Positions 10,977 to 31,715 of a stretch of 32,000 nucleotides of DNA are shown in pieces (the first letter of the stretch is position 1; every line of letters starts with the position of its first letter). Origin of the DNA: an uncultured Candidatus Saccharibacteria bacterium (GTDB lineage Bacteria > Patescibacteriota > UBA1384 > JAMDBS01 > CAZXAY01); assembly GCA_964638435.1 (NCBI GenBank), contig CAZXAY010000003.1, forward strand, positions 8,431 to 40,430, given 5' to 3'. Under the pieces are notes generated by a model. It ran no database searches, was not told the origin of the DNA, and worked only from the letters and a program-made list of their open reading frames with translations. A program made the translations under genes and the position numbers.

Positions 10977-11135
10977 TAGACTTGTTACGTAATAATTTTT
11001 GTAGCGAAAGCTAAGGATTTTGAGTGAAAATAATGAAGAGTGAGCAAGTTGTAACAGAGTTACACTGACGAACTATGAATTATTTTTTAACCAAAATTCT
11101 TAGTTTGCAGTAAAAATGTTATTTCGTAATAAGTC
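10977..11135. mobile_element. MITE-like element, copy A (159 bp), in the rpsB-tsf spacer
   Basis: About 95% identical to 19726-19914 apart from a 30-nt insertion in that copy. Imperfect terminal inverted repeats tagacttgttacgtaataa... / ...ttatttcgtaataagtc(ta). Flanked by TAA/TAA (10974-10976, 11136-11138). Confidence 0.8.
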
Positions 11136-15089: not shown

Positions 15090-16652
15090 TTAAACTTTTA
15101 ACTTATTATTAAGTATCTCATTTACAACTTGTGGATTAGCTTGCCCCTTACTCTCCTTCATCACGCATCCAACTAAAAATCCTACAATTTGAGTTTGACC
15201 GCCTTTTATTTTAGCCACCACGTCAGGATTTTTACTAATAACTTTCTCCACAATTTTTTCTAACTCACCAATATCAGAAATTTGTTCTAAACCTCTTTCT
15301 TTAATAATCTCTGATGGTTTTTTACCTTTATACAACTCTGACAAAATTTCTTTAGCTACTGATTTAGAAATTTTTCCAACTTTAATAGTACAAATAAGTT
15401 CTACAAACCATGCTGGGTTAATAGAAAAATCTTTGATATCGTTAATTATCCAAACAGCTAATTCAACTTTTGAATCGTCTGATATTAAATTTGCACATTT
15501 ATCAAATAATTTTGATCGCTCGCTATCAGATATAATCAAATTAGCATCAATTTTATTTAAACCAAATTTATTTTGATATCTATCTAAAACCTCTTCAACA
15601 GTCTCTGGTAATTGCTTAATAATCTCATTTATATTAATTATGTTTTTAGTTTTGAATTTTGGATTTTGGATTTGTTTAGAATTTAGAGTTTCGTGCTTAG
15701 AGTTTCCACCAATTACTACTGGTGGAAGATCTGGTTCCGGAAAATACCTATAATCAGCACTAGTTTCTTTAACTCGCATTATATAGGTTTTGTTTTTTAC
15801 CTCATCCCAACCGCGGGTTTCTTGAACAATTTTACCACCATTTTCAATCTCATCAATTTGTCGCTCAAGCTCAAATTCAATCGCCTTTTCAACTGATTTA
15901 AATGAATTAAGATTCTTAACCTCAACTTTAGTCCCAAATTCCTTTTGCCCTATTGGTTTAACGGAAATATTCGCTTCGCAACGCATTTGTCCCTTTTCCA
16001 TATCAGCGTCTGATACATCAAGCTTGCGAAGTCGCAATTGATAGCTCTGGCAAAACAATTTAGCAATTCTACCAGCCTCATCAATTGGCAAAGTTACAGC
16101 GTCCGTGACCAATTCCATTAGCGGTACGCCAGCCCTATTATAATCCATCAATGAGTAATCTACATCTGCCCTACCCTCCGGGTGTTTGCTTGTCCCAGTA
16201 TCTTCTTCCAAATGAATTCTGGTTATTCCAAAAGTTATTAGTTTTTCGTTTTCAGTTTTTAGTTTGAGCAAACCGCCAGTAACAATTGGTAAATCATATT
16301 GAGATATCTGATATCCTTTTGGTAAGTCTGGATAAAAATAGTTTTTTCGATCCCATTTAGTAAAGGTAGCAATATTGTCGGCTTTTTTATTATTTAAATA
16401 TAATCCAGTTTTTATGGTCATTTCAATCGCCTGTTTATTAAGTACAGGCAACATTCCAGGCATTCCCAAACACACCGGACAAATATTCATATTTTGTTCA
16501 GTTGGTTTAGATTCGCGTCTATTCGTGTTTTCATTCGGCATTATTCGTGTTGTGCTATTTGCACACGAGCAGAACATCTTTGACTGTGTTTTAAGCTCTG
16601 CATGAATCTCCAGCCCAATCACCGCTTCATATTTTTGATTGCTTTTTTTCAT
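15090..16652 (-). CDS. gatB: Asp/Glu-tRNA(Asn/Gln) amidotransferase subunit B
   Basis: YEAVIGLEIHAELKT, GMPGMLPVLN, RIHLEEDTG, YRYFPEPDLPP, C-terminal YqeY-like domain. Confidence 0.93.
   Translation of the reverse strand: MKKSNQKYEAVIGLEIHAELKTQSKMFCSCANSTTRIMPNENTNRRESKPTEQNMNICPVCLGMPGMLPVLNKQAIEMTIKTGLYLNNKKADNIATFTKWDRKNYFYPDLPKGYQISQYDLPIVTGGLLKLKTENEKLITFGITRIHLEEDTGTSKHPEGRADVDYSLMDYNRAGVPLMELVTDAVTLPIDEAGRIAKLFCQSYQLRLRKLDVSDADMEKGQMRCEANISVKPIGQKEFGTKVEVKNLNSFKSVEKAIEFELERQIDEIENGGKIVQETRGWDEVKNKTYIMRVKETSADYRYFPEPDLPPVVIGGNSKHETLNSKQIQNPKFKTKNIININEIIKQLPETVEEVLDRYQNKFGLNKIDANLIISDSERSKLFDKCANLISDDSKVELAVWIINDIKDFSINPAWFVELICTIKVGKISKSVAKEILSELYKGKKPSEIIKERGLEQISDIGELEKIVEKVISKNPDVVAKIKGGQTQIVGFLVGCVMKESKGQANPQVVNEILNNKLKV
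15642..15704. repeat. In-frame AT-word module inside gatB (encodes NSKHETLNSKQIQNPKFKTKN)
   Basis: gtttttagttttgaattttggattttggatttgtttagaatttagagtttcgtgcttagagtt. Shares the tttagaatttaga and ggattttggattt words with gatA 28495-28533. Confidence 0.75.
16510..16550. repeat. In-frame 'attcgtgtt' word module inside gatB (encodes TRIMPNENTNRRES)
   Basis: gattcgcgtctattcgtgttttcattcggcattattcgtgt. The same cacgaat/attcgtg words occur in the intergenic hairpins at 7104-7189 and 11913-11993. Confidence 0.6.
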
Positions 16653-16721
16653 AATTCATAATTCCCTGCCCGCCATCGCAAGCTCAGGCGTTGCGGGCGT
16701 GGCTAATTCATAATTCTGAAT
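16653..16721. repeat. GC-core hairpin (16664-16703) flanked by direct aattcataattc words
   Basis: aattcataattc + cctgcccgccatcgcaagctcaggcgttgcgggcgtgg + ctaattcataattc. Core stem gcccgc/gcgggc. The core resembles 5714-5743 (reverse orientation) and 19774-19803. Confidence 0.8.
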
Positions 16722-16775
16722 TTATTTTAACTCCGCATGTATCTCTAATCCAATAACCGCCTCGTATTTTGGCAT
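16722..16775 (-). pseudogene. Ghost 5' end of gatB (17 codons plus stop)
   Basis: ATG CCA AAA TAC GAG GCG GTT ATT GGA TTA GAG ATA CAT GCG GAG TTA AAA TAA gives MPKYEAVIGLEIHAELK*. Across YEAVIGLEIHAELK it differs from the real gatB at 10 of 42 nt, all synonymous. Confidence 0.8.
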
Positions 16776-16804
16776 TTTATTCCTTCAATGTCTAAAAAAC
16801 AAAT

Positions 16805-19399
16805 CTATATTTGATAAATACTGTTAATATTAGTACCCGTTGTAATGGTAAAACTAAAATTGACTCTATGAGCGTCCTTTAAATATCTCTTTAAATAATT
16901 AGCAATTTTTTCGCGATTGCTTAAAGCATGATAACTACCTTCTTGACCGGTAATATAAACCCCTGCTAAATTATTATCTTGCTGAAACTTTTTGGCAATC
17001 TCTAGCACTGACTCACAAAAAGCACCGGCATCAATTTTATCTAACCAATCCACATTGGGATTAAATCCCCGCAATAGTAGCGCCTTTTGTCCATTGATTT
17101 TTACAATATAAGCCTGGATATTAGCTCGCACGGATTGTTCATTCTCCACAATATTAATATGCAAATGATCATTTCTGTTAAATAGATTAGCATCCGAAGC
17201 AGTGCAAACTCCCGCTGAGGCTTTGGCGAAAAATGAACCAATATTTTTAGAAAAATATGCTTTTAATCCGCTAGTGGTAGTAACTACTTTTTCGCCTATA
17301 TCACTTTTTTCAAATTTATTAATTTCTTGGCTAATTTTTTCTCTATAAGATTTTAATACTTTTTCAAAAAGTACCTTGCCAAAAAGTTTGGCCATCCCCT
17401 CAATGGTATTTATTGACTGCCAGTCGATTTTCTCTTTTTCACTGCCAAATAATTTTTTTATTGCTTGCTGTCTCTTCGGAGTATTTAACAGTTCCTGTAT
17501 TTCTTTTGTTAAAATATCATTTCCTAGCAAATAATTTTTTAAAGCTGTTTGATAATTATCTTTAAAATATACTCCTAATATTTCTTTTAATTCCATAAGA
17601 TAGTTGTAGCTGTTTTGATTATCTAATTTGGAGTATCTTAAAATAAAATTTGTTACTAAATCATCTTGACTAATTAAACTAAGCAATTCTCCTAGTTCTG
17701 TTAGATTAAAATCCGTTTTGGACTTGGCTAAACCTAATAATAATTTATCCCATTCGATTTTAGGATTAGATTCTTGCGAATTTTCCCGCAAAAATAATTG
17801 TTTAAAGGAATTAAGAACATTAAAATCTGTTGTTTTATTTTCTTTTAATCTAAGTGATTTGTGGCTAGTTATTGTTAAAGGGTAACCTTCTTTGGGAAAA
17901 ATGTAATTTTTTATATCTCCAGTTTTATCCTCGAGTTGATCAATCATTTTTTTTACTTGCTCAAAACTCATCCCTATTGGTTTGTATGCTGAATAAACCA
18001 TTTCAACTAGAATATCCTCGTCCTTGGCAGGTAGTATATTTTTTATAGGTTCATTCTGAAAGAATTTGGGTTTTAATTGCCTAATTTGAGCGGATAATTC
18101 ACTTTTACCAGCATGGTCGGCATGACGATAACGATCAAAGATTATTGGCGTTAATGAATCTAAGTCAGTAAGGGCTTGAAAAATTTCTTGTTGATTACCC
18201 AGTACTGAGTAATCCGTCAATCTTGTATCGCACAAAGTATCAATAACAGTATTAAACTGATTAGGATATTCGGCAATTAATTTTCTTAAAAAGGGCAAAT
18301 GATTATCATCGCCAAGGAATTTTTGTAAATTGCTTGTCAAAAAATTCTTGTTGATTAAATTTAAACAAAAATATCTAAAAAATCGAGCGGGTATCTCTTT
18401 TTTACCCAAAAATTTCATAACCAAGCTACTACCTTTAGCGCTATCAATTTCTGCCAATTCTTTGATTATACGCGCCTCAAAAGAAATCTTTTTGAGATGT
18501 TTTTCTAAATCTTTTTCACTTGCTAGACCTTGAAAACCTAATTTCTGCAATAATTTAATGCTGTCATCTGATTCGATATGCTTTAAAGTTTCACATAATA
18601 ATTTAACAGTGGGTTTATCAACAGCAAATTGTAAATTAACAGCTTTTCCCAAATCTCTTGACGCTCTATCTTGCACTAATAGTTGTTGCCATTTATCTTT
18701 TTCATTAATGTATTTTTCTTTTAAAAACGGTGCTAATTCATGATCCATAATTATTGAGGCCATCTGTCTCTGATTTTCAGGCATTAAGTTGATAAAATCC
18801 TCTCTCTTATTTTCGTCTAAAACTAAAGCGTAGTTTTTTAATAAATCTGGATCACTTGCAACCGAGCTGGCAATTTTTTCCATTGCTGGCATTGGCATTT
18901 TTTCAGTTTCCCTTTTTTGGATTCCTAAAATCATTGCCTCCGCAAGCATACTTGAGGGATTAAATTTAGGTATCCCAGATGCCTGGTCAAGCATTTTTTT
19001 AGCGTAATTTATCGTTTCGCCGAAATTTAACTCCGCCAATTGCTCATGCTTAGCAACATCCGCCAATAAATAGGCGCTTAAATTTGGTGCCACATCTGCC
19101 ATTAACATTGCCTTTTGGCGATTTTTTTCACCCTTTTCATTCAAATAATTTTGTGCCTCTTCTTTGGTGACAACTACATTCCCATCGACCTCATTTTTAA
19201 CTAACGCCAAAGTTTCGTGATATTTATTTTTTAAACTTTCTAATTCAGGTGGTGGCAAGTTTAAAACTAATATTTTTAGTTCCTGTGATTTTTTTCTTAA
19301 ATCAGCCATCATAAAAATCATTGATTTTTCATCACTAGATAAAAATTGCGCTTGTTGATTTTCTATATTTTGATTATTGTTAATAAATTCATTCATCAT
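16805..19399 (-). CDS. Large hypothetical protein (864 aa), no recognisable domain
   Basis: Long uninterrupted ORF. Its ATGATG start overlaps the TGA stop of the RT remnant (ATGATGAATGA, 19389-19399). Mostly helical-looking, Lys/Glu/Leu-rich. The C-terminal 160 aa are more globular (GVCTASD...LLLRGFNP...ITGQEGSYHALSNR). Confidence 0.7.
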   Translation of the reverse strand: MMNEFINNNQNIENQQAQFLSSDEKSMIFMMADLRKKSQELKILVLNLPPPELESLKNKYHETLALVKNEVDGNVVVTKEEAQNYLNEKGEKNRQKAMLMADVAPNLSAYLLADVAKHEQLAELNFGETINYAKKMLDQASGIPKFNPSSMLAEAMILGIQKRETEKMPMPAMEKIASSVASDPDLLKNYALVLDENKREDFINLMPENQRQMASIIMDHELAPFLKEKYINEKDKWQQLLVQDRASRDLGKAVNLQFAVDKPTVKLLCETLKHIESDDSIKLLQKLGFQGLASEKDLEKHLKKISFEARIIKELAEIDSAKGSSLVMKFLGKKEIPARFFRYFCLNLINKNFLTSNLQKFLGDDNHLPFLRKLIAEYPNQFNTVIDTLCDTRLTDYSVLGNQQEIFQALTDLDSLTPIIFDRYRHADHAGKSELSAQIRQLKPKFFQNEPIKNILPAKDEDILVEMVYSAYKPIGMSFEQVKKMIDQLEDKTGDIKNYIFPKEGYPLTITSHKSLRLKENKTTDFNVLNSFKQLFLRENSQESNPKIEWDKLLLGLAKSKTDFNLTELGELLSLISQDDLVTNFILRYSKLDNQNSYNYLMELKEILGVYFKDNYQTALKNYLLGNDILTKEIQELLNTPKRQQAIKKLFGSEKEKIDWQSINTIEGMAKLFGKVLFEKVLKSYREKISQEINKFEKSDIGEKVVTTTSGLKAYFSKNIGSFFAKASAGVCTASDANLFNRNDHLHINIVENEQSVRANIQAYIVKINGQKALLLRGFNPNVDWLDKIDAGAFCESVLEIAKKFQQDNNLAGVYITGQEGSYHALSNREKIANYLKRYLKDAHRVNFSFTITTGTNINSIYQI

Positions 19400-20140
19400 C
19401 TAATACCTCCATTATTTCCCAGCTAAATTCATTTAATTTATGCTTGGAATGTTGTTTTATTAAACCATAATAACTTGACGCATTATTTATGTTTAGCCTG
19501 CTCTTAATCCTTTTTAAATTTCGTTTGTTCAAACTCCTTTTATCTGGGTATATTACAACTCCTAAAAATTTTATTCCGCGCCTAGCTTTAACTATAATGT
19601 CATTTTTTAAATTAATCTTTAAAAGTAAACTATTTTCTATAAACCTAATTGTATTTTCTCGTATTTCTTCTAATTTAGCAAGATCCTTATCTAAAATTAT
19701 AAAATCATCTCCATAGCGCAAATATTAGACTTGTTACGTAATAATTTTTGTAGCGAAAGCTAAGAATTTTGAGCCCGCCTTGACTCGGATCAGGCGAGGC
19801 AGGTGAAAATAATGAAGAGCGAGGAAGTTGTAACAGAGTTACGCTGACGAACTATGAATTATTTTTTAACCAAAATTATTAGTTTGTAGTAAAAATGTTA
19901 TTTCGTAATAAGTCTATTGTTTTATTTTTAATTTATGTTTAATAAACCTGTCTAACTCGTTCAAATAAATATTGGCAAAAATCTAACTAGTTAGGTTGCC
20001 AATTGGCAAGCCCTTTCTATTAAGACCCCCCCCCAATGTCTGTTGAATTGTCATTCTGAGCTTGCGAAGAATCTCTATTATAACCATCAATAACAAAATT
20101 GATTATCTTTTTAACATTTGGACAATCAACTCGTCTAAAA
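19389..20140 (-). pseudogene. DGR-type reverse transcriptase, decayed (5'-truncated, frameshifted, nonsense codon, split by MITE)
   Basis: My minus-strand translation gives ...RRVDCPNVKKIINFVIDGYNRDSSQAQNDNSTDIGGG (frameshift in the G9 run) LNRKGLPIGNLTS*IFANIYLNELDRFIKHKLKIKQ | MITE | YLRYGDDFIILDKDL...FLGVVIYPD...SSYYGLIKQHSKHKL. This covers RT motif 4 with the DGR-typical IGxxxSQ (Q codon is TAG here), motif 5 YGDD, and motifs 6-7. Confidence 0.8.
19726..19914. mobile_element. MITE-like element, copy B (189 bp), inserted in the RT gene, carrying a nested 30-nt GC hairpin (19774-19803)
   Basis: Same termini as copy A, flanked by TAT/TAT (19723-19725, 19915-19917). Deleting 19726-19917 (192 nt) joins ...KHKLKIKQ to YLRYGDDF in frame. 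Confidence 0.85.
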
Positions 20141-20161
20141 ATAAAATAATAAAATTAAAGA

Positions 20162-21283
20162 TTAAAGTCCAATGGTTTGTGGTAACATTACCGAGGAGCG
20201 AACGCCGGAGCCGGAAACGCCGAGATTGTCCCCGCTCAAATCAGCCTGACAGCCGTAGCGATCCCAACGGCAGACCGGCGCCCCACCGGAAACCAAAGAA
20301 GCTATTAAATAACAAGCTCTTGCTTGATCATCTATTTGCTGGTTAGTTTGTTGTAAATGAATAATTGCATAAATTAACCAATCTTGGATAACTAAACCCA
20401 TTTCATTAGCATATTGGGGATCTTCTTGAAGTTTTTTCAGATAATCTATTGGTGATTGGTTGGCTTCCAATTGTTTCCTTGCCTGACCTGAGCTATGTCG
20501 AAGGGTTTTACCCTGACCCTTTGCTGGTAAGTCTGGCAAATTTTCTATCAGTTTAATAGACCAGCCATTAGTGGGCTTAACTTTGTTAAGATACGCTTGA
20601 TATTGTTTATTCTTTTCTTTAGTAATTCCAGTAAGAAGCTCATTAAGGGTAAAACCTTTAAAGCTTGGATCAGTAAAGTCTTTGGGGTAATAGGTCATTT
20701 TAGTATTGCCATCTTGGTCTTCTTGATCACAATTAAGGTATCCATCCCAAATAAAGATTGGATCAAATTTAGTAGAATCATTATCATCTTCTTTGAGTTC
20801 TAAGGACGAGCCATCTGTAGATAGGAGTTTACCTTCTTTATGTTTTTTAATGATTAACTGTTTGTATCTTGATATTAGTATTTCCAGTGGTAGAACCATA
20901 GGAGTAAGAAGCAATTTAGTAAATCCTTGAGATTCTTTAAGTTCAAGTATTTGCAGTTGTTCGGGGGTGATTTGGGAAAGGATTTCTTCATAGGTGGGAA
21001 TAGGATATTCTTTGATTTTAGTACTGTCATGGGGGTCAACTCCAAGAACACCAATATCTTGGCAGTCTAGGAGTATGTCAATAACTCCTGTTTCATTAAG
21101 AGTTTTAACTTGGGACTCCCATTGAACTTTAAGCTGGAGCTTTTCTGAAAGAGCTTCTAGTTTAACTTGATGCTCAGTTTTTTCTGGAGTATCAGTAAGG
21201 CTGAGATCCTTCGCTCCACTAAGACTAACATCGGGTTGAGTTTCTTGAGCTTGATTAAATTGTTGGGGTAATTGTTCGGACAT
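20162..21283 (-). CDS. Candidate DGR variable protein, paralog A (373 aa)
   Basis: Paralogous to 22752..23816 over most of its length. The C-terminal ~40 codons are GC-rich, A-poor and hyperdivergent, ending in a conserved VMLPQT. The stop lies about 20 nt from the RT remnant. Confidence 0.75.
   Translation of the reverse strand: MSEQLPQQFNQAQETQPDVSLSGAKDLSLTDTPEKTEHQVKLEALSEKLQLKVQWESQVKTLNETGVIDILLDCQDIGVLGVDPHDSTKIKEYPIPTYEEILSQITPEQLQILELKESQGFTKLLLTPMVLPLEILISRYKQLIIKKHKEGKLLSTDGSSLELKEDDNDSTKFDPIFIWDGYLNCDQEDQDGNTKMTYYPKDFTDPSFKGFTLNELLTGITKEKNKQYQAYLNKVKPTNGWSIKLIENLPDLPAKGQGKTLRHSSGQARKQLEANQSPIDYLKKLQEDPQYANEMGLVIQDWLIYAIIHLQQTNQQIDDQARACYLIASLVSGGAPVCRWDRYGCQADLSGDNLGVSGSGVRSSVMLPQTIGL
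20193..20311 (-). other. Putative variable region (VR) of paralog A
   Basis: Roughly two-thirds G+C by eye, in a ~30% GC genome. In the 75-nt core, A is the rarest coding-strand base (8/75 by my count). Bounded 3' by a block identical to paralog B (ggtttgtggtaacattacc, 20174-20192). Confidence 0.6.
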
Positions 21284-21287
21284 AATA

Positions 21288-21974
21288 TTATTTTGAATTT
21301 AATTTTAATAAAAATAACAGTTCTGGAATTAGTTGATCTTTTATCCAAATTTTTTGTTTACTATCAACAACCTCACCCAAACTATGTAAAATGTTGATAT
21401 TTGATTTTTTTTCTAACAACTTTATGATTTCTTTTAAATACTCTTTAGTATTTTTACCTGTTCTCAATTTTATAATATTTTCATTAATAGGCCAATTATT
21501 TTTTAAGAAAAAATATACATCAAACAAATCTCGGTTAGCGAGTTTTTTCCTATCCAATACGGCTACCAATTTATTAGCAAAAATACAATCTTTTGTCATA
21601 GTTAAAATTGGCAATCCTAAATAATTTTTTATCTCAAAAGTATTTTCATTAATCAATCTTGTAGAAATTTCTATCTTAATATTATGGGCCTCATTTTTGT
21701 ATGACAATAAAAAGTAAATCGTATTAGCTTTTATTTTTTTGTCCTTTATTTCTCCAATGTCTACTAAAATTCCTAATAACTTTTTGAATACAAAATCGAC
21801 TCTGTCTAACTGCGACAAATTAAAATCTAAGTCGGTAGAAAACCTAGGTAAGTTATAAAAAAGATAACAAGCCGTCCCGCCTTTAAAACCTAAAATTGGC
21901 GCTAGATCTCTATCAGAATAAATAGCATATAATATTTTGCTTAACACTACTTCATGTTCCTTTTTATCAAGCAT
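21288..21974 (-). CDS. AbiEii-family nucleotidyltransferase toxin (pair 1)
   Basis: GFKGGTACYLFYNLPRFSTDLDFN signature. Overlaps the upstream AbiEi-like gene by 8 nt. Paralog of 25203..25913. Confidence 0.8.
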   Translation of the reverse strand: MLDKKEHEVVLSKILYAIYSDRDLAPILGFKGGTACYLFYNLPRFSTDLDFNLSQLDRVDFVFKKLLGILVDIGEIKDKKIKANTIYFLLSYKNEAHNIKIEISTRLINENTFEIKNYLGLPILTMTKDCIFANKLVAVLDRKKLANRDLFDVYFFLKNNWPINENIIKLRTGKNTKEYLKEIIKLLEKKSNINILHSLGEVVDSKQKIWIKDQLIPELLFLLKLNSK

Positions 21975-22554
21975 ATAATTTCCTTAATTTAGCTAATTTT
22001 TTTTCTAAACTCTTATTATCATAAATTTTAACTATTTCACTGCAAATCTGCCAATCAATTTTTGCCAAATTGTCAAAATAAAAATCACCATATAGGTATA
22101 GGGTGTCGAGCAAGGCTCTCTCACAAGACGCAACATCATAATTCTCCTTTCTTACAATTCCACTTGAATTTAATAATACTGAATCTTTGATTTTTTTATA
22201 AACATATTTTTGTTTATCAATTATAATTTCTTTTGATAATTTAGAAATAGAATAAATTGCGCTATCATATTGGAATATTATTCCCGCCCTTAATAAAACA
22301 GTTTGTAAACTAATATATGATGGAATAATTATTTTATTTGCAAGTTCATCTTTTAAATAATTACTATCAATTGCATACAATCCATTTCTTACTCTATTTA
22401 GTTGGCCATTTTTGACTAACCGATATATTTTAGTTTTTAAATAATTTGGCTCAGGTATTTGCCAAATTAAAATTAGGTCTTTAGTACTAAAAACCGTTTT
22501 TTTACTTTTTAACAGTAGTGTTATAGAATTATCTATCATATGTTTGTATCTCAT
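21967..22554 (-). CDS. AbiEi-family antitoxin/transcriptional regulator (pair 1); true start probably the ATG at 22539
   Basis: N-terminal wHTH-like region (TKDLILIWQ...YRLVKNGQLNRVRNGLY), C-terminal ...CERALLDTLYL. Aligns with pair 2 from MIDNS. Confidence 0.75.
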   Translation of the reverse strand: MRYKHMIDNSITLLLKSKKTVFSTKDLILIWQIPEPNYLKTKIYRLVKNGQLNRVRNGLYAIDSNYLKDELANKIIIPSYISLQTVLLRAGIIFQYDSAIYSISKLSKEIIIDKQKYVYKKIKDSVLLNSSGIVRKENYDVASCERALLDTLYLYGDFYFDNLAKIDWQICSEIVKIYDNKSLEKKLAKLRKLYA

Positions 22555-22556
22555 AA

Positions 22557-22574
22557 GTAATCATATTTGATTAC
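22557..22574. promoter_or_regulatory. Inverted repeat gtaatca-tatt-tgattac upstream of AbiEi pair 1 (candidate operator)
   Basis: Perfect 7-bp arms. The consensus AAGTAATnATATTTGnTTAC is shared with the repeat upstream of pair 2 (26492-26516). Confidence 0.55.
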
Positions 22575-22751
22575 ATTTATATTATACATCCTAATAAATA
22601 TACTTGCAACTTTTGGCACCTCGCCCCACTTGTCCCGCGTAGCTTTATGCGAAGTGGGAAGACGGGTTTATTTACCAAATTATTCAATTGAAAAAAAATC
22701 TTTTTTAAAGTTCAAAATTAAAGGTTAAATATTAAAATCAAAATTCAAAGT

Positions 22752-23816
22752 TCAATTGGTTTGTGGTAACATTACCACGGGACGGGAACCGCAGTCCCCG
22801 TACGAGAAGTCAGGGAAGTCTCCGTACAAGTCCGCCCGACGGTTGTCGCGACTCCAATAGTAGCGCAGCACTTTGCCAGCTAGGTATGATCCAGTTAACC
22901 AACAAGCTTTCCCTTTGCTTCGCCAGTCATCTATTTGCTGATTGGTTTCTTGTAATTGGGTAATAGCGTAAATGAGCCAACTTTCTAAGGTTAAACCTTG
23001 TTCGTGGGTATATTGTGGGTCTGTTTGGAGTTGGTTTAGATAATCTATTGGGGTTTGGTTGGCTTCTAATTGTTTTCTTTCATTAAGGGTTTTGCCTTGG
23101 TTTTGGGCAGGTAAATCAGGGTTGTCTTCGATAAATAGTATTTGCCAACCATTAGTGGATTTAAGCTTATCAAGTCTTAGTTGATGTTGGTGATTATTAG
23201 CTTTTCCTGATATTAATTCTGATTTAACAAAGCCTTGGTGATTATCTTTATCAAATTGCTCTGGATAGTAAATTAGTCTGCCATCAGTGTCAGCATTCTT
23301 AATATCATCCCAAACATAGACTGGGTCAAATTTAGTAGAATCATTATCATCTTTTTTGAGTTCTAAAGACGAGCCATCAGTAGCTAAGAGTTTACCTTCT
23401 TGATGTTTTTTAATGAGTAATTGCTTGTATCTATCGATTAAGGTTTCAAGGTGCGCGCCAATTGGAACTAGTAGCATTTTAGTAAAGCCTTGTTCTTGTT
23501 TAGTTTCTAATACTTTAAGTTGTTCTGGGGTAATTTTAGATAAGATTTCTTCATAGGTGGAAATAGGATATTCTTTGATTTTAGTACTGTCATGGGGGTC
23601 AACTCCAATAACACCAATATCTTGGCAGTCTAGGAGTATGTCAATAACTCCTGTTTCATTAAGAGTTTTAACTTGGGACTCCCATTGAACTTTAAGCTGG
23701 AGCTTTTCTGAAAGAGCTTCAAGACGTAGGAGGTGTTCAGATTCTCTTGTTTCGGTGTTAGTCTGAGATAAGTCTGGGTCAGTCGGTATTAAGTTGTAAG
23801 GCAATTGTTCTGGCAT
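22752..23816 (-). CDS. Candidate DGR variable protein, paralog B (354 aa)
   Basis: Same family as 20162..21283, with a GC-rich hypervariable C-terminus ...LRYYWSRDNRRADLYGDFPDFSYGDCGSRPVVMLPQTN. The W...RA...P...G(x)RPVV pattern resembles C-type-lectin/FGE-type DGR VR scaffolds. Confidence 0.75.
   Translation of the reverse strand: MPEQLPYNLIPTDPDLSQTNTETRESEHLLRLEALSEKLQLKVQWESQVKTLNETGVIDILLDCQDIGVIGVDPHDSTKIKEYPISTYEEILSKITPEQLKVLETKQEQGFTKMLLVPIGAHLETLIDRYKQLLIKKHQEGKLLATDGSSLELKKDDNDSTKFDPVYVWDDIKNADTDGRLIYYPEQFDKDNHQGFVKSELISGKANNHQHQLRLDKLKSTNGWQILFIEDNPDLPAQNQGKTLNERKQLEANQTPIDYLNQLQTDPQYTHEQGLTLESWLIYAITQLQETNQQIDDWRSKGKACWLTGSYLAGKVLRYYWSRDNRRADLYGDFPDFSYGDCGSRPVVMLPQTN
22777..22901 (-). 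other. Putative variable region (VR) of paralog B
   Basis: GC-rich, with 14/75 A on the coding strand in the core. Bounded 3' by the identical block ggtttgtggtaacattacc (22758-22776). Confidence 0.6.
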
Positions 23817-23820
23817 AATA

Positions 23821-25095
23821 TTATTTTAGATTTAATAACCACTTATAAGTTGGCAAAACTTTTATTGTTTTATTGTTAATATTAATTATTTTTTCTTTAT
23901 CAGTTGTTAATATTATACTACTTTTAAGATCTAGCTCATCCATTGCTTGAATTAATGCCTTTATTTCTCTTTCTCTCGTATCGGTTTTTTCGATACTTTC
24001 ACAAACCTGAATTAATTCTATTATATCCCTTCCTTTTCTAATAACAAAATCAACTTCTAAATTATTTTTTGTTTTATAGTAATAAATTGAGTCGCCTCGC
24101 CGCTTAAGCTCAATAAAAACCATATTTTCCAAAAATTTTCCACTATTTTTAGAAAAACTAAATGAAATGGCGTCAGCAAGCCCGTTATCAATTGAATATA
24201 TCTTTTTAGGCGCAATAAATTGTTGTGAAACTTTATAAGAAAAAATATTCACTGTAAAAAATAAGTAACTATTTTCAAAATAATCTGTATAGCTTTTTAC
24301 CGTATTAACACTACCCAATTTTAAAATTTCTTTTAATTTATTAAAGGAAGTTAAGTTTCCCAGGTTACTAAAATAATATAACGCTAATTCGCGAAGTGAT
24401 TTTACTTCCTGAACATCATAACGAGTTACAATGTCACGATACAAAATATCTTCGTAAATTCTTTTTAAAATATCTTTATTTTCAAACTTTAAATATTCTG
24501 GTAATCCACCAGATTTTAAATATTGGTTGAAATATGATTTTAATTTTGCTCTTTCTTTAGTATAAGATGTGGCATTACTTGGTACTATATATCCCTTAAA
24601 ATCAAGATATTCTCTAAAAGAAAACGGATATAGTTCATAAGGAATATATCGACCCGTTAATTTTGTGCCCAACTCACGACTCAACATTGAGGCATTGGAG
24701 CCTGTTAAGTAAAATTTGAAACCTTTATCCTGCATTCTTCTAACAAAATTTTCCCAACCAATAATATTTTGAATTTCATCAAAAAAGAAAACTGTTTTTT
24801 CTCCAAACAATTCTAACAATATTTCATATAACTTATTAAAATCTTCTTTTTGAAAATTAATTAATCGTTCATCCTCAAAATTAAAATAATAACACTTGTT
24901 CTTATAAAATTTATTCATTATCTGCATTAATAATGTTGATTTACCCACTCTTCTTAAGCCAGAAATAACGATACTATGTGGAATTTTCAATGATTCCTCT
25001 AATTTAAGCATTGTATCTCTTTCAATCCCCACATCTTTTTTTTCTAAATCTTTGGCTTGCTCCATGATTATTTCTTTAAGTAAATTTAAATCCAT
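23821..25095 (-). CDS. AAA-type ATPase with DUF4143-like C-terminus
   Basis: Walker A GLRRVGKST, Walker B FFFDEIQ, 424 aa. Architecture typical of the COG1373-type 'ATP-binding protein'. Confidence 0.8.
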   Translation of the reverse strand: MDLNLLKEIIMEQAKDLEKKDVGIERDTMLKLEESLKIPHSIVISGLRRVGKSTLLMQIMNKFYKNKCYYFNFEDERLINFQKEDFNKLYEILLELFGEKTVFFFDEIQNIIGWENFVRRMQDKGFKFYLTGSNASMLSRELGTKLTGRYIPYELYPFSFREYLDFKGYIVPSNATSYTKERAKLKSYFNQYLKSGGLPEYLKFENKDILKRIYEDILYRDIVTRYDVQEVKSLRELALYYFSNLGNLTSFNKLKEILKLGSVNTVKSYTDYFENSYLFFTVNIFSYKVSQQFIAPKKIYSIDNGLADAISFSFSKNSGKFLENMVFIELKRRGDSIYYYKTKNNLEVDFVIRKGRDIIELIQVCESIEKTDTREREIKALIQAMDELDLKSSIILTTDKEKIININNKTIKVLPTYKWLLNLK

Positions 25096-25140
25096 ATATT
25101 CCTCAATGTTTTCGCTACTAATGCAATTATATCATTAATT

Positions 25141-25161
25141 GTTTTCATTGTCAATGAAAAC
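25141..25161. promoter_or_regulatory. Perfect 21-bp palindrome gttttcattg-t-caatgaaaac between AbiEii pair 2 and the ATPase gene
   Basis: 10-bp arms around a single central base, 46 nt upstream of the ATPase start. Confidence 0.4.
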
Positions 25162-25202
25162 ATTCATAATGTTAATTTATGATTGTTCAAACATAATAAT
25201 CA

Positions 25203-25913
25203 TTATTTAATAACTGATTGATAATTTTTAAGCATAAAAACTGTTTCTAATTTTAATTTATTTTTAACCCAAATTTTTTCTTTTTCACCTAATAGCTCTC
25301 CAAGTCCTTGTAAAATTTGATTATTTTCTATCTTTTCTATCTCAACAATACAATCAGATAAATAGTTTTTAATGTTTTTCCCTGTTCTATTCTTGATTAT
25401 TTCAAGGTCGATATCCCAACTATTTTTGCTAAAATAATAGATATCATAAACATCACGCGTAACCACTCTACTTCGTTGAGTTAATGCCACTAGTTTACTA
25501 GCAAAAAGATAGTTTTTTTTAGCAATTAACATTGAAATACCAAGATATTCTTTTAATTCATAATGATCTCTAATATTTTTGATAAGTTTTCTAATATTAA
25601 TTTCAATCTTAATATTGTGATCACCATCACCATAGGAAAGAAGAAAAAAAATAGTATATCTTTCTATTCGCTGGTCTTTTACTTCGCCATATTTTTTTAA
25701 AATAGCTAATATCTTTTTAAATAATATCTCGACAATTAATTTATCAGCAGTTAGTAAATCAAAATCTAAATCCACTGAAAATCGTGGTAAATTATAGAAA
25801 AAATAGGCGCAGGTACCGCCCTTAAACCCTAAATACGATGAAATAGACATATCACTATAAATGTCCTTTAATATTTGACCCATAATTAATTGGTGATTTT
25901 CTTTATTTAACAT
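25203..25913 (-). CDS. AbiEii-family nucleotidyltransferase toxin (pair 2)
   Basis: GFKGGTCAYFFYNLPRFSVDLDFD signature. Overlaps the upstream antitoxin gene by 11 nt. Confidence 0.8.
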   Translation of the reverse strand: MLNKENHQLIMGQILKDIYSDMSISSYLGFKGGTCAYFFYNLPRFSVDLDFDLLTADKLIVEILFKKILAILKKYGEVKDQRIERYTIFFLLSYGDGDHNIKIEINIRKLIKNIRDHYELKEYLGISMLIAKKNYLFASKLVALTQRSRVVTRDVYDIYYFSKNSWDIDLEIIKNRTGKNIKNYLSDCIVEIEKIENNQILQGLGELLGEKEKIWVKNKLKLETVFMLKNYQSVIK

Positions 25914-26475
25914 AGTTTTGATGATATTTATTTAAACGTTTAATTAATTGTTGATTATCATAAATCTTAACTAATTCAAAACATTTTTGCCAATCAAGTG
26001 GTTGGAGATTGTCAAAATAGTATTCATCAAAAAGGTAAAGCGTATCCAAAAAAGCTCTTTCTGGTGATGCGATGCTATAGTTACCTTGATTAATTATTCC
26101 ATTTGAATTATATAATAAGTTATTTTTTAGTTTTCTAAAATTAATAGAATGCTTATCAACAATTATCGTTTTTGACCAAGGACCGACAACAAAAATTGTA
26201 TCATAATGTTGAAAGATAATGCCAGCCCCTCGCAAAACAGTTTCGAAACTAATATATGATGGGATATAAATACTTGTGGCTAATTCTTTGGAATCATAAT
26301 TTCTGTCTTTAGCAAATATGCCTCTAGTAAGTCTGATTAACAAACCTTTTTTTATGTAATAGTAAATTTTAGCTTTCAAATTTTTCGAATTAGTTTCTTG
26401 CCAAATTAAAGCTAGATCTTTATTAGTCAAGATTGTTTTGGGATTCTGATAGAGTTTAGCAATTAGATTATCCAT
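25903..26475 (-). CDS. AbiEi-family antitoxin/transcriptional regulator (pair 2)
   Basis: Paralog of 21967..22554 (NKDLALIWQ..., ...PERAFLDTLYL). Confidence 0.75.
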   Translation of the reverse strand: MDNLIAKLYQNPKTILTNKDLALIWQETNSKNLKAKIYYYIKKGLLIRLTRGIFAKDRNYDSKELATSIYIPSYISFETVLRGAGIIFQHYDTIFVVGPWSKTIIVDKHSINFRKLKNNLLYNSNGIINQGNYSIASPERAFLDTLYLFDEYYFDNLQPLDWQKCFELVKIYDNQQLIKRLNKYHQNYVK

Positions 26476-26491
26476 AGTAACTTTGTTGGAT

Positions 26492-26516
26492 GGAAGTAAT
26501 AATATTTGTTACTTCC
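26492..26516. promoter_or_regulatory. Inverted repeat ggaagtaa-taatatttg-ttacttcc upstream of AbiEi pair 2 (candidate operator)
   Basis: 8-bp arms, 17 nt upstream of the start codon. Core similar to 22557-22574. Confidence 0.55.
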
Positions 26517-26699
26517 ATTATATAAAATATCTTATTGATTGTCAAATTCACTTTAAAAAGATGATAACTCATAATTATTCAATTAGCATTTGTATACTCC
26601 AACATCGTATAATTTGCCAATATATTATACGATTACAACATATATCCAGTATACAATTTATCCTAGAAATGATCATTTTTGATTACTTTTAGATCATAT

Positions 26700-27689
26700 C
26701 TATTGTAATAAACTTATTATTATTTTTATCATTACATCTTTTTCTTTTGGATCACTAGTAGCAACCAAAAGTGCCAAAGAAACAAGTGTATTGTTATTTA
26801 TTTTCCTTTGTAAATCTAGGGTATATAAATAATTATTTTCTTTTAAAAAATAAACAAATAGTATAGAGGCGATTCGTTTATTGCCATCTGCAAAGGGGTG
26901 ATCTTTAATGGTTAAATACAACAAATTTGCTGCTTTTTCTTCTATATTATTATATAACTCTTTACTATCAAAAGTTTGATAAATAGAGCTAATTATCGCC
27001 TCGAATTTATGATCATATTCTTGACCAAATAAATCACCTGCTTGACCATCACTTTTTAACTCAGCTTTAATAGCAATAATGGTATTTTTACATTTTTCAT
27101 AGTCTAGCGCAAATTTTGCTTTTGTAGTTTTAGCAATTTTAATTTTACCCTGATCATATTCATCAAGTAATTTTAAAGATTTAGCAAATTCACCTAGTAA
27201 TGATAACAATTCTCGTGATTTATCTTGCAAAACATAGTTATCTGCCTTTTTTTCGATAAAAGTAATCGTTTCTTTGAGTAAAACTAATTTATCTTTATAC
27301 TCTAACATTTTTTTGTCATTAACAGCATAACCACTTAATAAATAATTTTTTAGAGTATTGGTTGCCCAAATTCTAAACTGGGTTGCTCTTTTTGAGTTAA
27401 CGCGATAACCAACAGATATAATAGCATCTAGATTATATAATCTAGTTTTATATTTTTGTCCAGTAACACCCACATGTTCCAAAATGGAACATGTGCTTTG
27501 CTCAGAAAGTTCATTCGACTTATAAACATTAGCTAAATGTTTAGTAATAGCAGGTCTCTGAATATCGAATAATTGAGCAATTTGATCTTGACCTAACCAA
27601 ACCGTTTCCTTATCAACTTTAACATCAATCTGTGCATTCCCAGATTCATCTTTATATATTATTATTTTGTTTGTTTCTTCTTTTTTCAT
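26700..27689 (-). CDS. RhuM-like N-terminal domain fused to a Fic/Doc domain
   Basis: N-terminus ...WLGQDQIAQLFDIQRPAITKHLANVY...YNLDAIISVGYRVNSKRATQFRIWAT (RhuM family). C-terminus HPFADGNKRIA matches the Doc-type HxFx(D/E)(A/G)NKR variant of the Fic motif. Confidence 0.8.
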   Translation of the reverse strand: MKKEETNKIIIYKDESGNAQIDVKVDKETVWLGQDQIAQLFDIQRPAITKHLANVYKSNELSEQSTCSILEHVGVTGQKYKTRLYNLDAIISVGYRVNSKRATQFRIWATNTLKNYLLSGYAVNDKKMLEYKDKLVLLKETITFIEKKADNYVLQDKSRELLSLLGEFAKSLKLLDEYDQGKIKIAKTTKAKFALDYEKCKNTIIAIKAELKSDGQAGDLFGQEYDHKFEAIISSIYQTFDSKELYNNIEEKAANLLYLTIKDHPFADGNKRIASILFVYFLKENNYLYTLDLQRKINNNTLVSLALLVATSDPKEKDVMIKIIISLLQ

Positions 27690-27857
27690 ATTTGTTCTTT
27701 TTGAGTTATCCGGAAATTCCTGATAATTGAACTGTTTACCAAGCTTTCAGTATATTCCATTTTGGAAACAACTGACTATTTAATCCACATTGTGCATTTT
27801 TTGCACATACTGAAATTTTATTATACTTAATACTTACTACATAATACTAAATACTTA

Positions 27858-28310
27858 TTATATCGCTCCCAAATTATGTAATCCTAACTTAAAATTATTT
27901 AAAGTTTTCCCTGCTTCGATACTAGTTAATTTATAACCCATTTCATGCGATATTTGATTACGAACTTTATGAGAATTCCAAACTTGCTGATATTTATTGT
28001 AGTCCATTTTCGATTCCAAACTTCTTAACCGATCAGCAAAGCTATCACCCTTTGCCCCAACCTGTTTCATCATACTATCAAAAAATTTATCAGCCTCGAT
28101 TATAGCTTGTTTGGCATGAATTTCGTCTCCACTTTCTAACATTTTTTCGATAATAAGCCAATTAGCTAAATTTTGAACTTTATTTATATTTTCGTTTTTA
28201 GTTTTTAGTTTTAAGATTTTCTTAATCGGCCAACATAATAAAAACCATAAACCTCTCAAGAGACTAAGTACTAATGTTTCTATTAAACTAGTTTGTTTTT
28301 TTCTCTTCAT
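27858..28310 (-). CDS. Membrane-anchored hypothetical protein (150 aa)
   Basis: N-terminal TM segment. Contains the repeat-encoded LKLKTKNENI stretch (28189-28215). No family recognised. Confidence 0.5.
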   Translation of the reverse strand: MKRKKQTSLIETLVLSLLRGLWFLLCWPIKKILKLKTKNENINKVQNLANWLIIEKMLESGDEIHAKQAIIEADKFFDSMMKQVGAKGDSFADRLRSLESKMDYNKYQQVWNSHKVRNQISHEMGYKLTSIEAGKTLNNFKLGLHNLGAI

Positions 28311-28332
28311 ATTTTTGTTCTTGTGTTACATG

Positions 28333-29949
28333 TTATATGTTACATGATTTCATATGCCAATCTGTTTCTTGTTGATATTGATGCGCAATAGAAAGAATAA
28401 TTTCTTCCCCAAATTGTGGCCCTAAAATTTGCATCCCAATTGGAAGATATGTGATTTGTGATTTGTGACCTGCCTCGCCGACGGACGGGTTTGTGATTTT
28501 TTTAGAATTTAGAACTTCGGATTTTGGATTTTCCACGTATCCACAAGGAATTGAAACTCCCGGGATTCCTGCGATATTGGCTGTAACAGTGTAAATATCC
28601 TCCAAATACATTTGCACTGGGTCTTTAACTTTATCTCCAAATTTAAATGGCATTGTTGGTGTTGTTGGAGTTAAAATCGCATCAACTTTTTCATATGCTT
28701 TTTTAAAATCTTCTATTACCAAAGTTCTAACTTTCATCGCTTTTTTGTAATATTTATCGTAATATCCCGCAGACAAAACATATGTTCCCATCATAATTCG
28801 TCGCTTAGCTTCAGCACCGAAACCCTGAGCTCGATTAAAATTATAATAATCAACCAAAGTTTTTAGTTTTTCATTTCCTGCCTCGAGCGTAGTCGAGAAG
28901 CTAGTTTTTAGTTTGTCTGCCGAAAACCCATATTTAATTCCGTCGTATCGAGCTAAGTTTGACGATACTTCAGCAGGTTGAATAATATAATAACATGCTA
29001 AACCATAATCCGTCATTGGTAAACTAATTTCTACAAATTTTGCTCCTAGTTTTTCTAATACTTTCTTTGCCTCATCAATTTTTCCAGCAATTCTTGAATC
29101 TAATCCTTTAGCAAAATATTCTTTTGGTAATCCAATCTTAAAAGTTTTTAAATTTAAACTGTGGTTTTTAGTTTTAAGCTTTAAATTTTTAGTTATATTT
29201 TCAGCTGAAAATATTTTATTCGGCACCGTTGTCGAATCCAGTGGATCATGTCCTCCAATAATTTCTTGTATTATTGCCACATCTTCAGCACTCCTTGCAA
29301 ATGGCCCAGGACAATCTAGACTAGAAGCCATAGCAATAATCCCAAATCTAGAATTTCGGCCATAAGTTGGTTTTAAACCAGTTATTCCGCAATATGCAGC
29401 TGGCTGACGGATTGAGCCACCAGTGTCCGTTCCAATAGAAGCAAAACCCATATTTACGGCGACGGCAACAGCCGATCCACCAGAAGAACCACCAGGCACC
29501 CTTTCTAAATCCCATGGATTTTTTGTTGGTCCAAAATCAGAATTCTCGGTTGATGATCCATGTGCCCAAGCATCTAAATTATTTTTGCCAATTATTACAG
29601 CGCCAGCATCTTTAAGTCTTTTAACTACAGTTGCATCATATGGCGGTATAAAATCTTCAAGCATTTTACTAGCTGCTGTAGTTTTTATACCATTTGTACA
29701 AAATAAATCTTTAATTGATATCGGCACACCATCTATTTGGCTTCTCTGCTCACCGCTCACCCTTCTCAAATCAGACTTCTGAGCCTGTTCAAGCGCCTCT
29801 TTTTCAGTCAAAGTTATAAATGCATGAACTTTTGGTTCAACTTCTTTAACACGCTCAAAAACCATCTTCGTTAATTCTACCGAAGAAATCTTTTTTTCAT
29901 CTAACATTTGGGAAATTTTTTTAATTGTTTTGTTTAAAATTACATTCAT
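28333..29949 (-). CDS. gatA: Asp/Glu-tRNA(Asn/Gln) amidotransferase subunit A
   Basis: Amidase signature GGSSGGSAVAVA..GTDTGGSIRQPA, KDLFCT..TTAASKML, C-terminal LPIGMQILG. Confidence 0.93.
   Translation of the reverse strand: MNVILNKTIKKISQMLDEKKISSVELTKMVFERVKEVEPKVHAFITLTEKEALEQAQKSDLRRVSGEQRSQIDGVPISIKDLFCTNGIKTTAASKMLEDFIPPYDATVVKRLKDAGAVIIGKNNLDAWAHGSSTENSDFGPTKNPWDLERVPGGSSGGSAVAVAVNMGFASIGTDTGGSIRQPAAYCGITGLKPTYGRNSRFGIIAMASSLDCPGPFARSAEDVAIIQEIIGGHDPLDSTTVPNKIFSAENITKNLKLKTKNHSLNLKTFKIGLPKEYFAKGLDSRIAGKIDEAKKVLEKLGAKFVEISLPMTDYGLACYYIIQPAEVSSNLARYDGIKYGFSADKLKTSFSTTLEAGNEKLKTLVDYYNFNRAQGFGAEAKRRIMMGTYVLSAGYYDKYYKKAMKVRTLVIEDFKKAYEKVDAILTPTTPTMPFKFGDKVKDPVQMYLEDIYTVTANIAGIPGVSIPCGYVENPKSEVLNSKKITNPSVGEAGHKSQITYLPIGMQILGPQFGEEIILSIAHQYQQETDWHMKSCNI
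28450..28533. repeat. In-frame repeat module inside gatA (encodes ENPKSEVLNSKKITNPSVGEAGHKSQIT)
   Basis: gtgatttgtgatttgtg + acctgcctcgccgacggacggg + tttgtgattttt + ttagaatttagaacttcggattttggattttc. The 12-mer acctgcctcgcc is the reverse complement of ggcgaggcaggt in MITE copy B (19793-19804). Confidence 0.8.
28858..28917. repeat. In-frame repeat module inside gatA (encodes KLKTSFSTTLEAGNEKLKT)
   Basis: agtttttagttttt + catttcctgcctcgagcgtagtcgagaagct + agtttttagttt. A GC core lies between direct copies of the AT word. Confidence 0.8.
29141..29195. repeat. In-frame AT-word stretch inside gatA (encodes KNLKLKTKNHSLNLKT)
   Basis: aaagtttttaaatttaaactgtggtttttagttttaagctttaaatttttagtt, the same ttttagtttt word family. 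Confidence 0.55.
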
Positions 29950-31335: not shown

Positions 31336-31650
31336 CTATTCTAATATCTGTTTAACCTTAATGTATCCATCTTTTTGAGCCGGGGCGTTGGATAAAAGTC
31401 CCTCACGATTAACTTTTTTATCTGCATTAATCTGTGTCTGTCCATCAGCGATATCCTCCCTAAACACATTTTCTAACCCTGTAACTTGTGATGTTTCCTC
31501 AATCCCATCTGTTTTGACTTCTTCTAATTTTTCCACAAACTTCAAAATTCCCGAAAGCTGTTCGGAGTATAATTGTTTTTCTTCATCTGATAATTCAATC
31601 CGAGCAAGTCGTGCAATACTGTCAACTTGATCTTTGGATAATTTACTCAT
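31336..31650 (-). CDS. gatC: Asp/Glu-tRNA(Asn/Gln) amidotransferase subunit C
   Basis: LARIELSDEEKQLYSEQLSGILKFVEKLEEV. I prefer the ATG at 31650 (GGAGA 5 nt upstream) over the track start at 31689. Confidence 0.88.
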   Translation of the reverse strand: MSKLSKDQVDSIARLARIELSDEEKQLYSEQLSGILKFVEKLEEVKTDGIEETSQVTGLENVFREDIADGQTQINADKKVNREGLLSNAPAQKDGYIKVKQILE

Positions 31651-31715
31651 TATTTTCTCCAAAAGCAATACGTGCCCCGTATACGACACTTCTGTTATAA
31701 CAGGACGTAGTCAGT

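Follow-up and report, generated by a model that had tools for sequence, protein, structure and literature searches.

Why an intact housekeeping gene should be preceded by a second copy of its own start is the question raised by this locus. In the 32,000-nt stretch of DNA analysed here (the window), gatB lies downstream of a short open reading frame that repeats the first codons of the gene and then stops. We refer to this fragment as the ghost.

A second gatB start ahead of the live gene

The junction comprises the following features:

16781..16786, minus strand: ribosome-binding site of the ghost, GAAGGA, 5 nt 5′ of the ghost ATG
16722..16775, minus strand: ghost gatB start, ATG plus 16 sense codons plus TAA, reading MPKYEAVIGLEIHAELK and a stop
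16704..16716, minus strand: upstream copy of the AT-rich GAATTATGAATTA, belonging to the Fic–gatB spacer common to relatives L004 and L089
16665..16703, minus strand: GC-rich hairpin core of 39 nt, between both copies of GAATTATGAATTA
16652..16664, minus strand: downstream copy of GAATTATGAATTA, its final base being the A of the live gatB ATG
15090..16652, minus strand: live gatB, 520 aa, with Pfam domains GatB_N and GatB_Yqey, beginning MKKSNQKYEAVIGLEIHAELKT

Read from 16775 to 16722, the ghost runs ATG CCA AAA TAC GAG GCG GTT ATT GGA TTA GAG ATA CAT GCG GAG TTA AAA TAA, with 16725 as its final gatB-derived base and TAA occupying 16724..16722. The sequence-only reading of the window had recognized this second gatB-like start, and it is found here as described, on the minus strand. 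Placed 29 nt past an 864-aa gene and 69 nt ahead of gatB (ghost stop to live ATG; 70 nt by the count of the earlier reading), the ghost has an operon-like position. It keeps all 15 conserved residues, the ATG, the frame and the ribosome-binding site, the GAAGGA being homologous to the AAGGA 5′ of intact gatB in the relative L001. The ghost had been credited with a better ribosome-binding site than the live gene: GAAGGA does lie 5 nt from its ATG, but the comparison was overstated, as live gatB has a ribosome-binding-site-like AGGGA 10 nt ahead of its own. Also at 10 nt from the gatB ATG are AAGGA in L089 and GGAGA in L004; with a purine-rich element at this distance in all three genomes, live gatB does not lack a ribosome-binding site.

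From ghost to live gene the sequence reads TAA-ATTCA, GAATTATGAATTA, the 39-nt core and GAATTATGAATTA again, both 13-nt copies being exact. The core (16703..16665) is the GC-core hairpin already noted between the two starts. It folds at −19.9 kcal/mol (z = −2.1) and has no U-tract, and the hairpin and leader region contains no terminator-like site and no Rfam match. Occupying the same site in L004 (47 nt) and L091 is an unrelated core, and in L089 there is none; by this comparison the core is a separate, optional insert. The hairpin as creator of the duplication was considered and rejected: deleting the core and one motif copy leaves both starts in place. Nor is it the cause of the duplication, because L004 holds a different core and L089 none.

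The GAAYTATGAATTA motif occurs four times in the window (11070–11082, 16652–16664, 16704–16716 and 19849–19861), against 0.4 copies expected. It also flanks the core upstream of gatB in L004 and forms a tandem pair in L089, and may be a regulatory or target site. Within gatB itself, codons ~35–49 (window 16505–16548) hold a 22-nt tandem repeat with copies 73% identical, encoding part of a GatB insertion between the CSC and CPVC zinc-motif cysteines (ANSTTRIMPNENTNRRESKPTEQNMN), a site at which the relatives carry different insertions.

The two copies diverged as working alleles

Across the 14 codons of YEAVIGLEIHAELK, ghost and live copy show 10 nucleotide differences in 42 nt yet encode identical residues, a count made in the sequence-only reading and reproduced here. 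Eight of the differences fall at third positions and two at first positions of Leu codons. This is not a chance pattern: 10 random substitutions were drawn 200,000 times, whether transitions were favoured or not, and no draw was entirely synonymous. With 10 differences per 9.2 synonymous sites, divergence between the copies has reached saturation. The segment KYEAVIGLEIHAELKT is near-invariant in the best 120 GatB homologues, even in those ~45–57% identical overall, and zero amino-acid differences are therefore expected of any functional allele. Ghost and live copy each evolved under purifying selection within a working gene.

Over 45 nt, the ghost is identical to live gatB at 35 positions, to L004 at 38 and to L001 at 37, and live gatB over the same 45 nt matches L001 and L004 at 36 each. 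No long exact word is common to the two copies. Being as distant from live gatB as from the gatB of other species, the ghost is no local duplicate; a tandem duplication that then decayed was rejected on the count of 10 synonymous to 0 non-synonymous differences and on a ghost–live identity (35/45) not above that between ghost and orthologues (37–38/45). The earlier proposal that the ghost comes from another functional gatB allele is thus upheld, the divergence being of species level and all synonymous. The donor lineage that the comparison with gatB 5′ ends of relatives was meant to reveal did not emerge: no near-identical sequence is present among the 84 listed loci, the best reaching 38/45 nt. 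Also rejected was a template and variable repeat pair of a diversity-generating retroelement, whose copies should differ only where one of them has adenine: of the 10 differing positions, just 4 carry A in the ghost and 2 in the live copy, with C/T or T/G at the rest.

With residues, ATG and ribosome-binding site intact, the event that produced the ghost is either recent or, less likely, has left an open reading frame that is under selection. Decay since loss of function would amount to less than ~0.09 substitutions per site (95% bound, with ~35 non-synonymous sites as an estimate), far below the divergence to any available relative.

A block of about 10 kb ends in the ghost

Upstream of the ghost, the window is organized as follows:

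31336..31689, minus strand: gatC, then an HTH gene
28333..29949, minus strand: gatA, then a 150-aa gene and Fic/RhuM
26700..27689, minus strand: Fic/RhuM gene, 81% identical to L004 and to L089, its stop forming the left block edge
26675..26690, minus strand: AAAAGTAATCAAAAAT, 10–25 nt past the Fic stop, a 15/16 match to live gatB codons 2–7
16725..26699, minus strand: block of ~10.0 kb that L004, L089 and L091 lack, with the truncated gatB start at its end
16805..19399, minus strand: 864-aa gene, ending 29 nt before the ghost ATG, with no family match

Past gatB, the minus-strand order continues with DUF5654, htrA, prfB, rpmE and rpsB. The limits of the 11.7-kb island at whose boundary the ghost had been placed proved wrong: the GC core at 28460–28496 lies in frame within gatA, and the segment missing from relatives measures ~10.0 kb (26699..16725). 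The 150-aa and Fic/RhuM genes belong to the conserved backbone, both being present in L004 and Fic also in L089. Contained in the block are two AbiEi/AbiEii pairs, a PDC-S01 (AAA_14/DUF4143) ATPase, the 864-aa gene and the ghost, together with two paralogous open reading frames with GC-rich C-termini and reverse-transcriptase remnants. No integrase, recombinase or transposase was found in 16805..26475 by Pfam, NCBIfam or PADLOC. By codon usage and GC3, neither the block nor gatB is separable from the backbone. The match of AAAAGTAATCAAAAAT to gatB, the only gatB-like match in a test of what continues past the left junction, is weak and A-rich (empirical p about 0.02) and may be a coincidence.

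The 864-aa protein (ACD_58C00036G0002 at NCBI, where GatB is ACD_58C00036G0003) is 55% identical to the 865-aa product of the gene directly 5′ of gatB in L001. It belongs to a conserved family of ~850–900 aa that occurs only in Patescibacteria and has no Pfam, NCBIfam or PADLOC match. The neighbours of its homologues (L001, L006, L007 and L008) vary and include Fic, AbiEii and TraG-like genes, contexts that fit mobile cargo. In several independent assemblies the contig ends 40–200 nt upstream of the homologue; when metagenomes were scanned with the 864-aa protein, a single locus came up, short and distant.

Remnants resembling diversity-generating retroelements lie at window 19389–20093, 20162–21283 and 22752–23816, and at 1–1591 of L001. 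One is a C-terminal piece of a reverse transcriptase, 110 aa long, that overlaps the 864-aa gene at its start; in another, degenerate stretch of reverse transcriptase a stop codon interrupts the frame (GLPIGNLTS, stop, IFANIYLNELDRF). The GC-rich 3′ ends of the two paralogous open reading frames match the first 200 nt of L001. No template repeat of a diversity-generating retroelement was detected in the window.

The window joins two gene arrangements

A scan of a genome collection with a GatB alignment gave at least 80 loci, the closest 59% identical among the matches listed. GatB identity to the window is 66–70% for L001, L002 and L003, 64–66% for L004 and 72% for L089, the closest of these relatives. 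Only the window has a second copy of the gatB motif (1 of 85 gatB-bearing sequences, the 84 listed loci plus the window); L001, L004, L089 and L091 are without it.

Two arrangements meet at the ghost. In L001, L002 and L003, bAvd, a split reverse transcriptase and the 865-aa gene are followed by 17 nt including AAGGA and by an intact gatB. Aligned by blastn, window 19725..16725 matches L001 1258..4270, a span that includes ribosome-binding site and ghost as well as the 864-aa gene; the order of the 373-aa open reading frame, reverse-transcriptase remnant and 864-aa gene is likewise collinear. The alignment stops at the last base of ghost codon 17, and live gatB aligns apart, from 16647. The second arrangement, found in L004, runs gatC, gatA, 150-aa gene, 308-aa gene, Fic/RhuM, a 77-nt spacer and gatB, and L091 and L090 are arranged as in L004. 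With this order the window is collinear from gatC to the Fic stop (about 26700–26701) and again from 16664. In L089, Fic with an identical C-terminus is followed by TAG, AGGAGATTCTG, GAATTATATGAATAA, G, GAATTATGAATT and the gatB ATG, with no GC core, so that in L004, L091 and L089 alike Fic/RhuM and gatB are neighbours, with a short AT-rich spacer between them. The DNA that close relatives lack ends within a gene homologue and not at a gene boundary (16725, the L004 match resuming at 16664).

Taken together, the alignments indicate that the window joins two arrangements each intact elsewhere, that of L001 and that of L004, L091 and L089. The earlier suggestion of a recombination junction with DNA of a diverged relative agrees with this order, in which collinearity with L001 ends at ghost codon 17 and an L004-type spacer follows. 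By HtrA, PrfB, L31, S2, Tsf, Frr and M50 the window is much nearer L004 than L001 (HtrA identity 73–74% aa for L004 and L089, 60% for L001), and GatB identities among window, L001, L004 and L089 are star-like, at 65–72%.

Prolyl-tRNA synthetase, elsewhere in the window (5777–7099), is syntenic with a 478-aa enzyme with ProRS-C_1 in L004 (19804–21240) to which it is 26% identical, against 52% identity between window and L001; this indicates replacement of the gene in one lineage.

Assembly support for the junctions

Two co-occurring strains or species joined by the assembler, with no real molecule carrying both ghost and live start, would also account for the locus. The contig was assembled from short metagenomic reads (ACD_58C00036), the community sampled being rich in related Patescibacteria, and the right junction rests on this single 2012-era assembly. 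Independent Logan contigs of SRR446575 break within gatB at window 15919, and neither the exact GatB nor the exact 864-aa product (863- and 864-aa versions) is on record among them; searches with exact GatB, the exact 864-aa protein or the N-terminal half of GatB gave no independent contig across the ghost. The gene numbers G0002 and G0003 further suggest that the NCBI contig begins near 20 kb, so that the window may come from a longer, joined record. Against an artefact, gatB (...AAA ACN) and the Fic spacer (...TTACAATAAATTC) probably share only ~2–4 nt at the join of GAGTTAAAA to TAAATTCAG, far below any assembly k-mer, and ghost and live copy have no long exact word in common. The 864-aa gene and gatB are numbered consecutively on one contig, the left junction is matched at 100% identity by Logan contig L092 (window 29350..25589), and the gene order ahead of the ghost is that of L001. 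On these sequence comparisons an assembly chimera is unlikely, and we give very little credence to a molecule that never existed.

A run of nine G lies at window ~20022–20030, in non-coding DNA between the 373-aa open reading frame and the reverse-transcriptase remnant; the presumed start of the NCBI contig is near.

Origin of the ghost and direction of transfer

The ghost is probably a recombination scar, consisting of the ribosome-binding site and first 17 codons of a second, species-level diverged gatB allele, with block and ghost imported together. The source allele would have been part of a whole gatB under normal purifying selection until recently. In the donor, as in L001, a reverse-transcriptase remnant, the 864-aa gene and a ribosome-binding site would have preceded gatB, and the recipient would have had the order of L004, L091 and L089, namely gatA, 150-aa gene, Fic/RhuM, short AT-rich spacer and gatB. 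Into the spacer between Fic and gatB would then have come a ~10-kb block bearing the genes for AbiE, reverse transcriptase and the 864-aa protein, with 51 nt from the start of the donor gatB attached. One end of the block, in or left of Fic, was probably joined by homology, for which Fic, 81% identical to its relatives, could be the anchor. The other end would be an illegitimate join, with a possible microhomology between TTAAAATA on the ghost side and TTACAATA on the Fic side; the two agree at 7 of 8 positions, a short and AT-rich match. The resident gatB would have been left intact and functional, along with the spacer, hairpin and ribosome-binding site that belong to it. We infer the direction of transfer, the one-sided homology with its illegitimate join, and the recency of the event. 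Since Fic, spacer and gatB adjoin in L004, L091 and L089 and HtrA groups the window with these relatives, the order Fic–spacer–gatB is expected to be native, and one insertion explains the window. With no recombinase in the block, homology-facilitated illegitimate recombination (HFIR) would be the best available mechanism.

Transfer may also have run the other way, the resident having had the 864-aa gene, ribosome-binding site and gatB of the L001 type and the live gatB being the import, with the ghost as the displaced resident start. Donor DNA with Fic, spacer and gatB would have been anchored by homology inside or downstream of gatB, and its upstream end, which starts just past the Fic stop (TAA ATTCA...), would have been linked by an illegitimate join to codon 17 of the resident gene. 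The 55% identity of the 864-aa proteins of window and L001, compatible too with the block having descended vertically in the lineage of the window, is within the range of neighbouring housekeeping genes (41–70%), GatB is anomalously distant between window and L004 (66%, against 74–77% for HtrA, Frr and M50), and replacement of alleles within gatB is documented between L004 and L091. Yet the lineages of L004 and L089 would have had to lose the block, or never to have had it, although HtrA groups them with the window; the window would have had to keep gatA, the 150-aa gene and Fic at the far left, at a cost of at least one extra event; and live gatB has an ANSTTRI insertion and the spacer motif in common with L004 and L089, as expected of a native gene. 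Parsimony thus favours import of the block and ghost over import of live gatB. Because GatB is star-like, the 864-aa divergence fits vertical descent and codon usage is uninformative, we retain the reverse transfer as an unlikely but serious alternative.

The ghost could instead be a functional upstream open reading frame, acting as a leader peptide or in translational coupling, in which selection after a local duplication had confined divergence to synonymous sites. Its intact ribosome-binding site, ATG and frame, its operon-like position and the stable hairpin between it and gatB would suit such a role. The frame is not conserved, however, in the gatB-bearing sequences compared above; the hairpin has no U-tract, terminator-like site or Rfam family and is absent in L089; live gatB has its own conserved ribosome-binding-site position; and collinearity with L001 explains the origin of the ghost without selection on a peptide. 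We therefore regard such a function as highly improbable, and the ghost as probably a short leftover open reading frame, predicted to be translated, with no demonstrated role. Equally hard to sustain, and if anything still more remote, is duplication of an attachment site, with the block as a site-specific integrative element that targets the gatB start and carries a gatB-like site. The 864-aa gene is directly 5′ of gatB in two lineages, window and L001, a 15/16-nt repeat of live gatB codons 2–7 lies just past the Fic stop at the far block end, and contigs of several assemblies end just upstream of 864-aa homologues. In integration of the Campbell type, though, two copies of the target flank the element, whereas ghost and live start are on the same side of the block, 69 nt apart. 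The block is moreover without integrase, recombinase or transposase, the 16-mer match is A-rich with p about 0.02, and 864-aa homologues elsewhere do not adjoin gatB.

Exchange of gatB alleles in relatives

L004 and L091, whose HtrA proteins are 97% identical, show how gatB alleles can be exchanged at a similar position. Between the end of Fic and gatB nt 47, spacer included, the two sequences agree at every base (100% identity); past nt 47, identity falls to 80–85% for ~1.15 kb and then returns to 95–100%. This 5′ breakpoint is within the same conserved motif as the ghost end and ~15 nt from it. A sliding identity profile of the window gatB against L001 and L004 was noisy, with no clear breakpoint. 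Compared with L091 and L090, L004 9841–11500 records allelic replacement inside gatB by an allele 15–20% diverged.

Because the two breakpoints, window codon 17 and L004/L091 nt 47, are ~15 nt apart, the near-invariant 45-nt coding motif at the gatB start (KYEAVIGLEIHAELK) might be a preferred landing site for swapping gatB alleles and upstream defence and reverse-transcriptase islands in Patescibacteria, the ghost being a by-product. We hold this wider reading to be unlikely. If it were true, the ghost might be translated, helping to couple gatB translation to the upstream island genes.

Relation to known systems

Duplicated gene ends, such as the 3′ ends of tRNA genes, occur at attachment sites of integrative elements; they flank the element and depend on an integrase. 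The window resembles them in that part of the adjoining gene is repeated, in diverged form, at an island boundary, but the block has no integrase and a single edge holds both ghost and live start, separated by 69 nt.

The import of block and ghost proposed here has its closest counterpart in HFIR during natural transformation, summarised for Acinetobacter, Streptococcus pneumoniae and Pseudomonas stutzeri in PMC3240628 and through references 41, 42 and 47 of PMC5361080. In this process, homology at one end is combined with a microhomology join at the other, the insert carries no recombinase gene, and truncated or duplicated gene pieces may remain at the illegitimate junction. The window differs in that its mechanism is read from the end product in a metagenome assembly, and in an insert of ~10 kb, above the size of typical experimental events. 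Rhs, CDI and T6SS effector–immunity loci offer another parallel: there, an incoming diverged allele or module displaces part of the resident gene, and a short, recognizable but non-functional piece of a homologous gene stays beside the working copy (PMC5361080). Such orphans would mirror the displaced resident start of a transfer in the reverse direction. They are, however, variable 3′ ends that come with immunity genes, and some can function (PMC5361080), whereas the ghost is the conserved 5′ end of a housekeeping gene and has no evident function.

Short GC-rich palindromic cores such as that ahead of gatB are found in spacers of these genomes of ~30% GC, and also in frame inside housekeeping genes:

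window 28469–28498: GC-rich core within gatA
window 16665–16703: GC-rich core ahead of gatB
window 19770–19805: GC-rich core
window 22610–22645: GC-rich core
window 6347–6386: GC-rich core
L004 9945–9988: GC-rich core
L001 ~4305–4335: GC-rich core

The core in gatA is a 27-aa in-frame insert in the window that L004 lacks, and the L001 core lies within gatB, past the CSC motif. Several cores are flanked by short AT-rich direct repeats, and GGCGAGGCAGG, for which chance predicts 0.13 copies, ends two of those in the window. In appearance the cores are similar to the Rickettsia type of mobile palindromic mini-insert.

Implications

The ghost is a clear case of a known kind of event and calls for no new mechanism. 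For annotation, it is a warning that this 17-codon open reading frame is a pseudogene fragment and not a new small gene. The interval between gatA and gatB emerges as a variable hot spot, with gatB itself a mosaic in relatives, into which a block of defence and retroelement genes would have moved without a recombinase of its own. As a clean, datable footprint, the ghost would record exchange between diverged, uncultivated, small-genome Patescibacteria of the ACD58 group.
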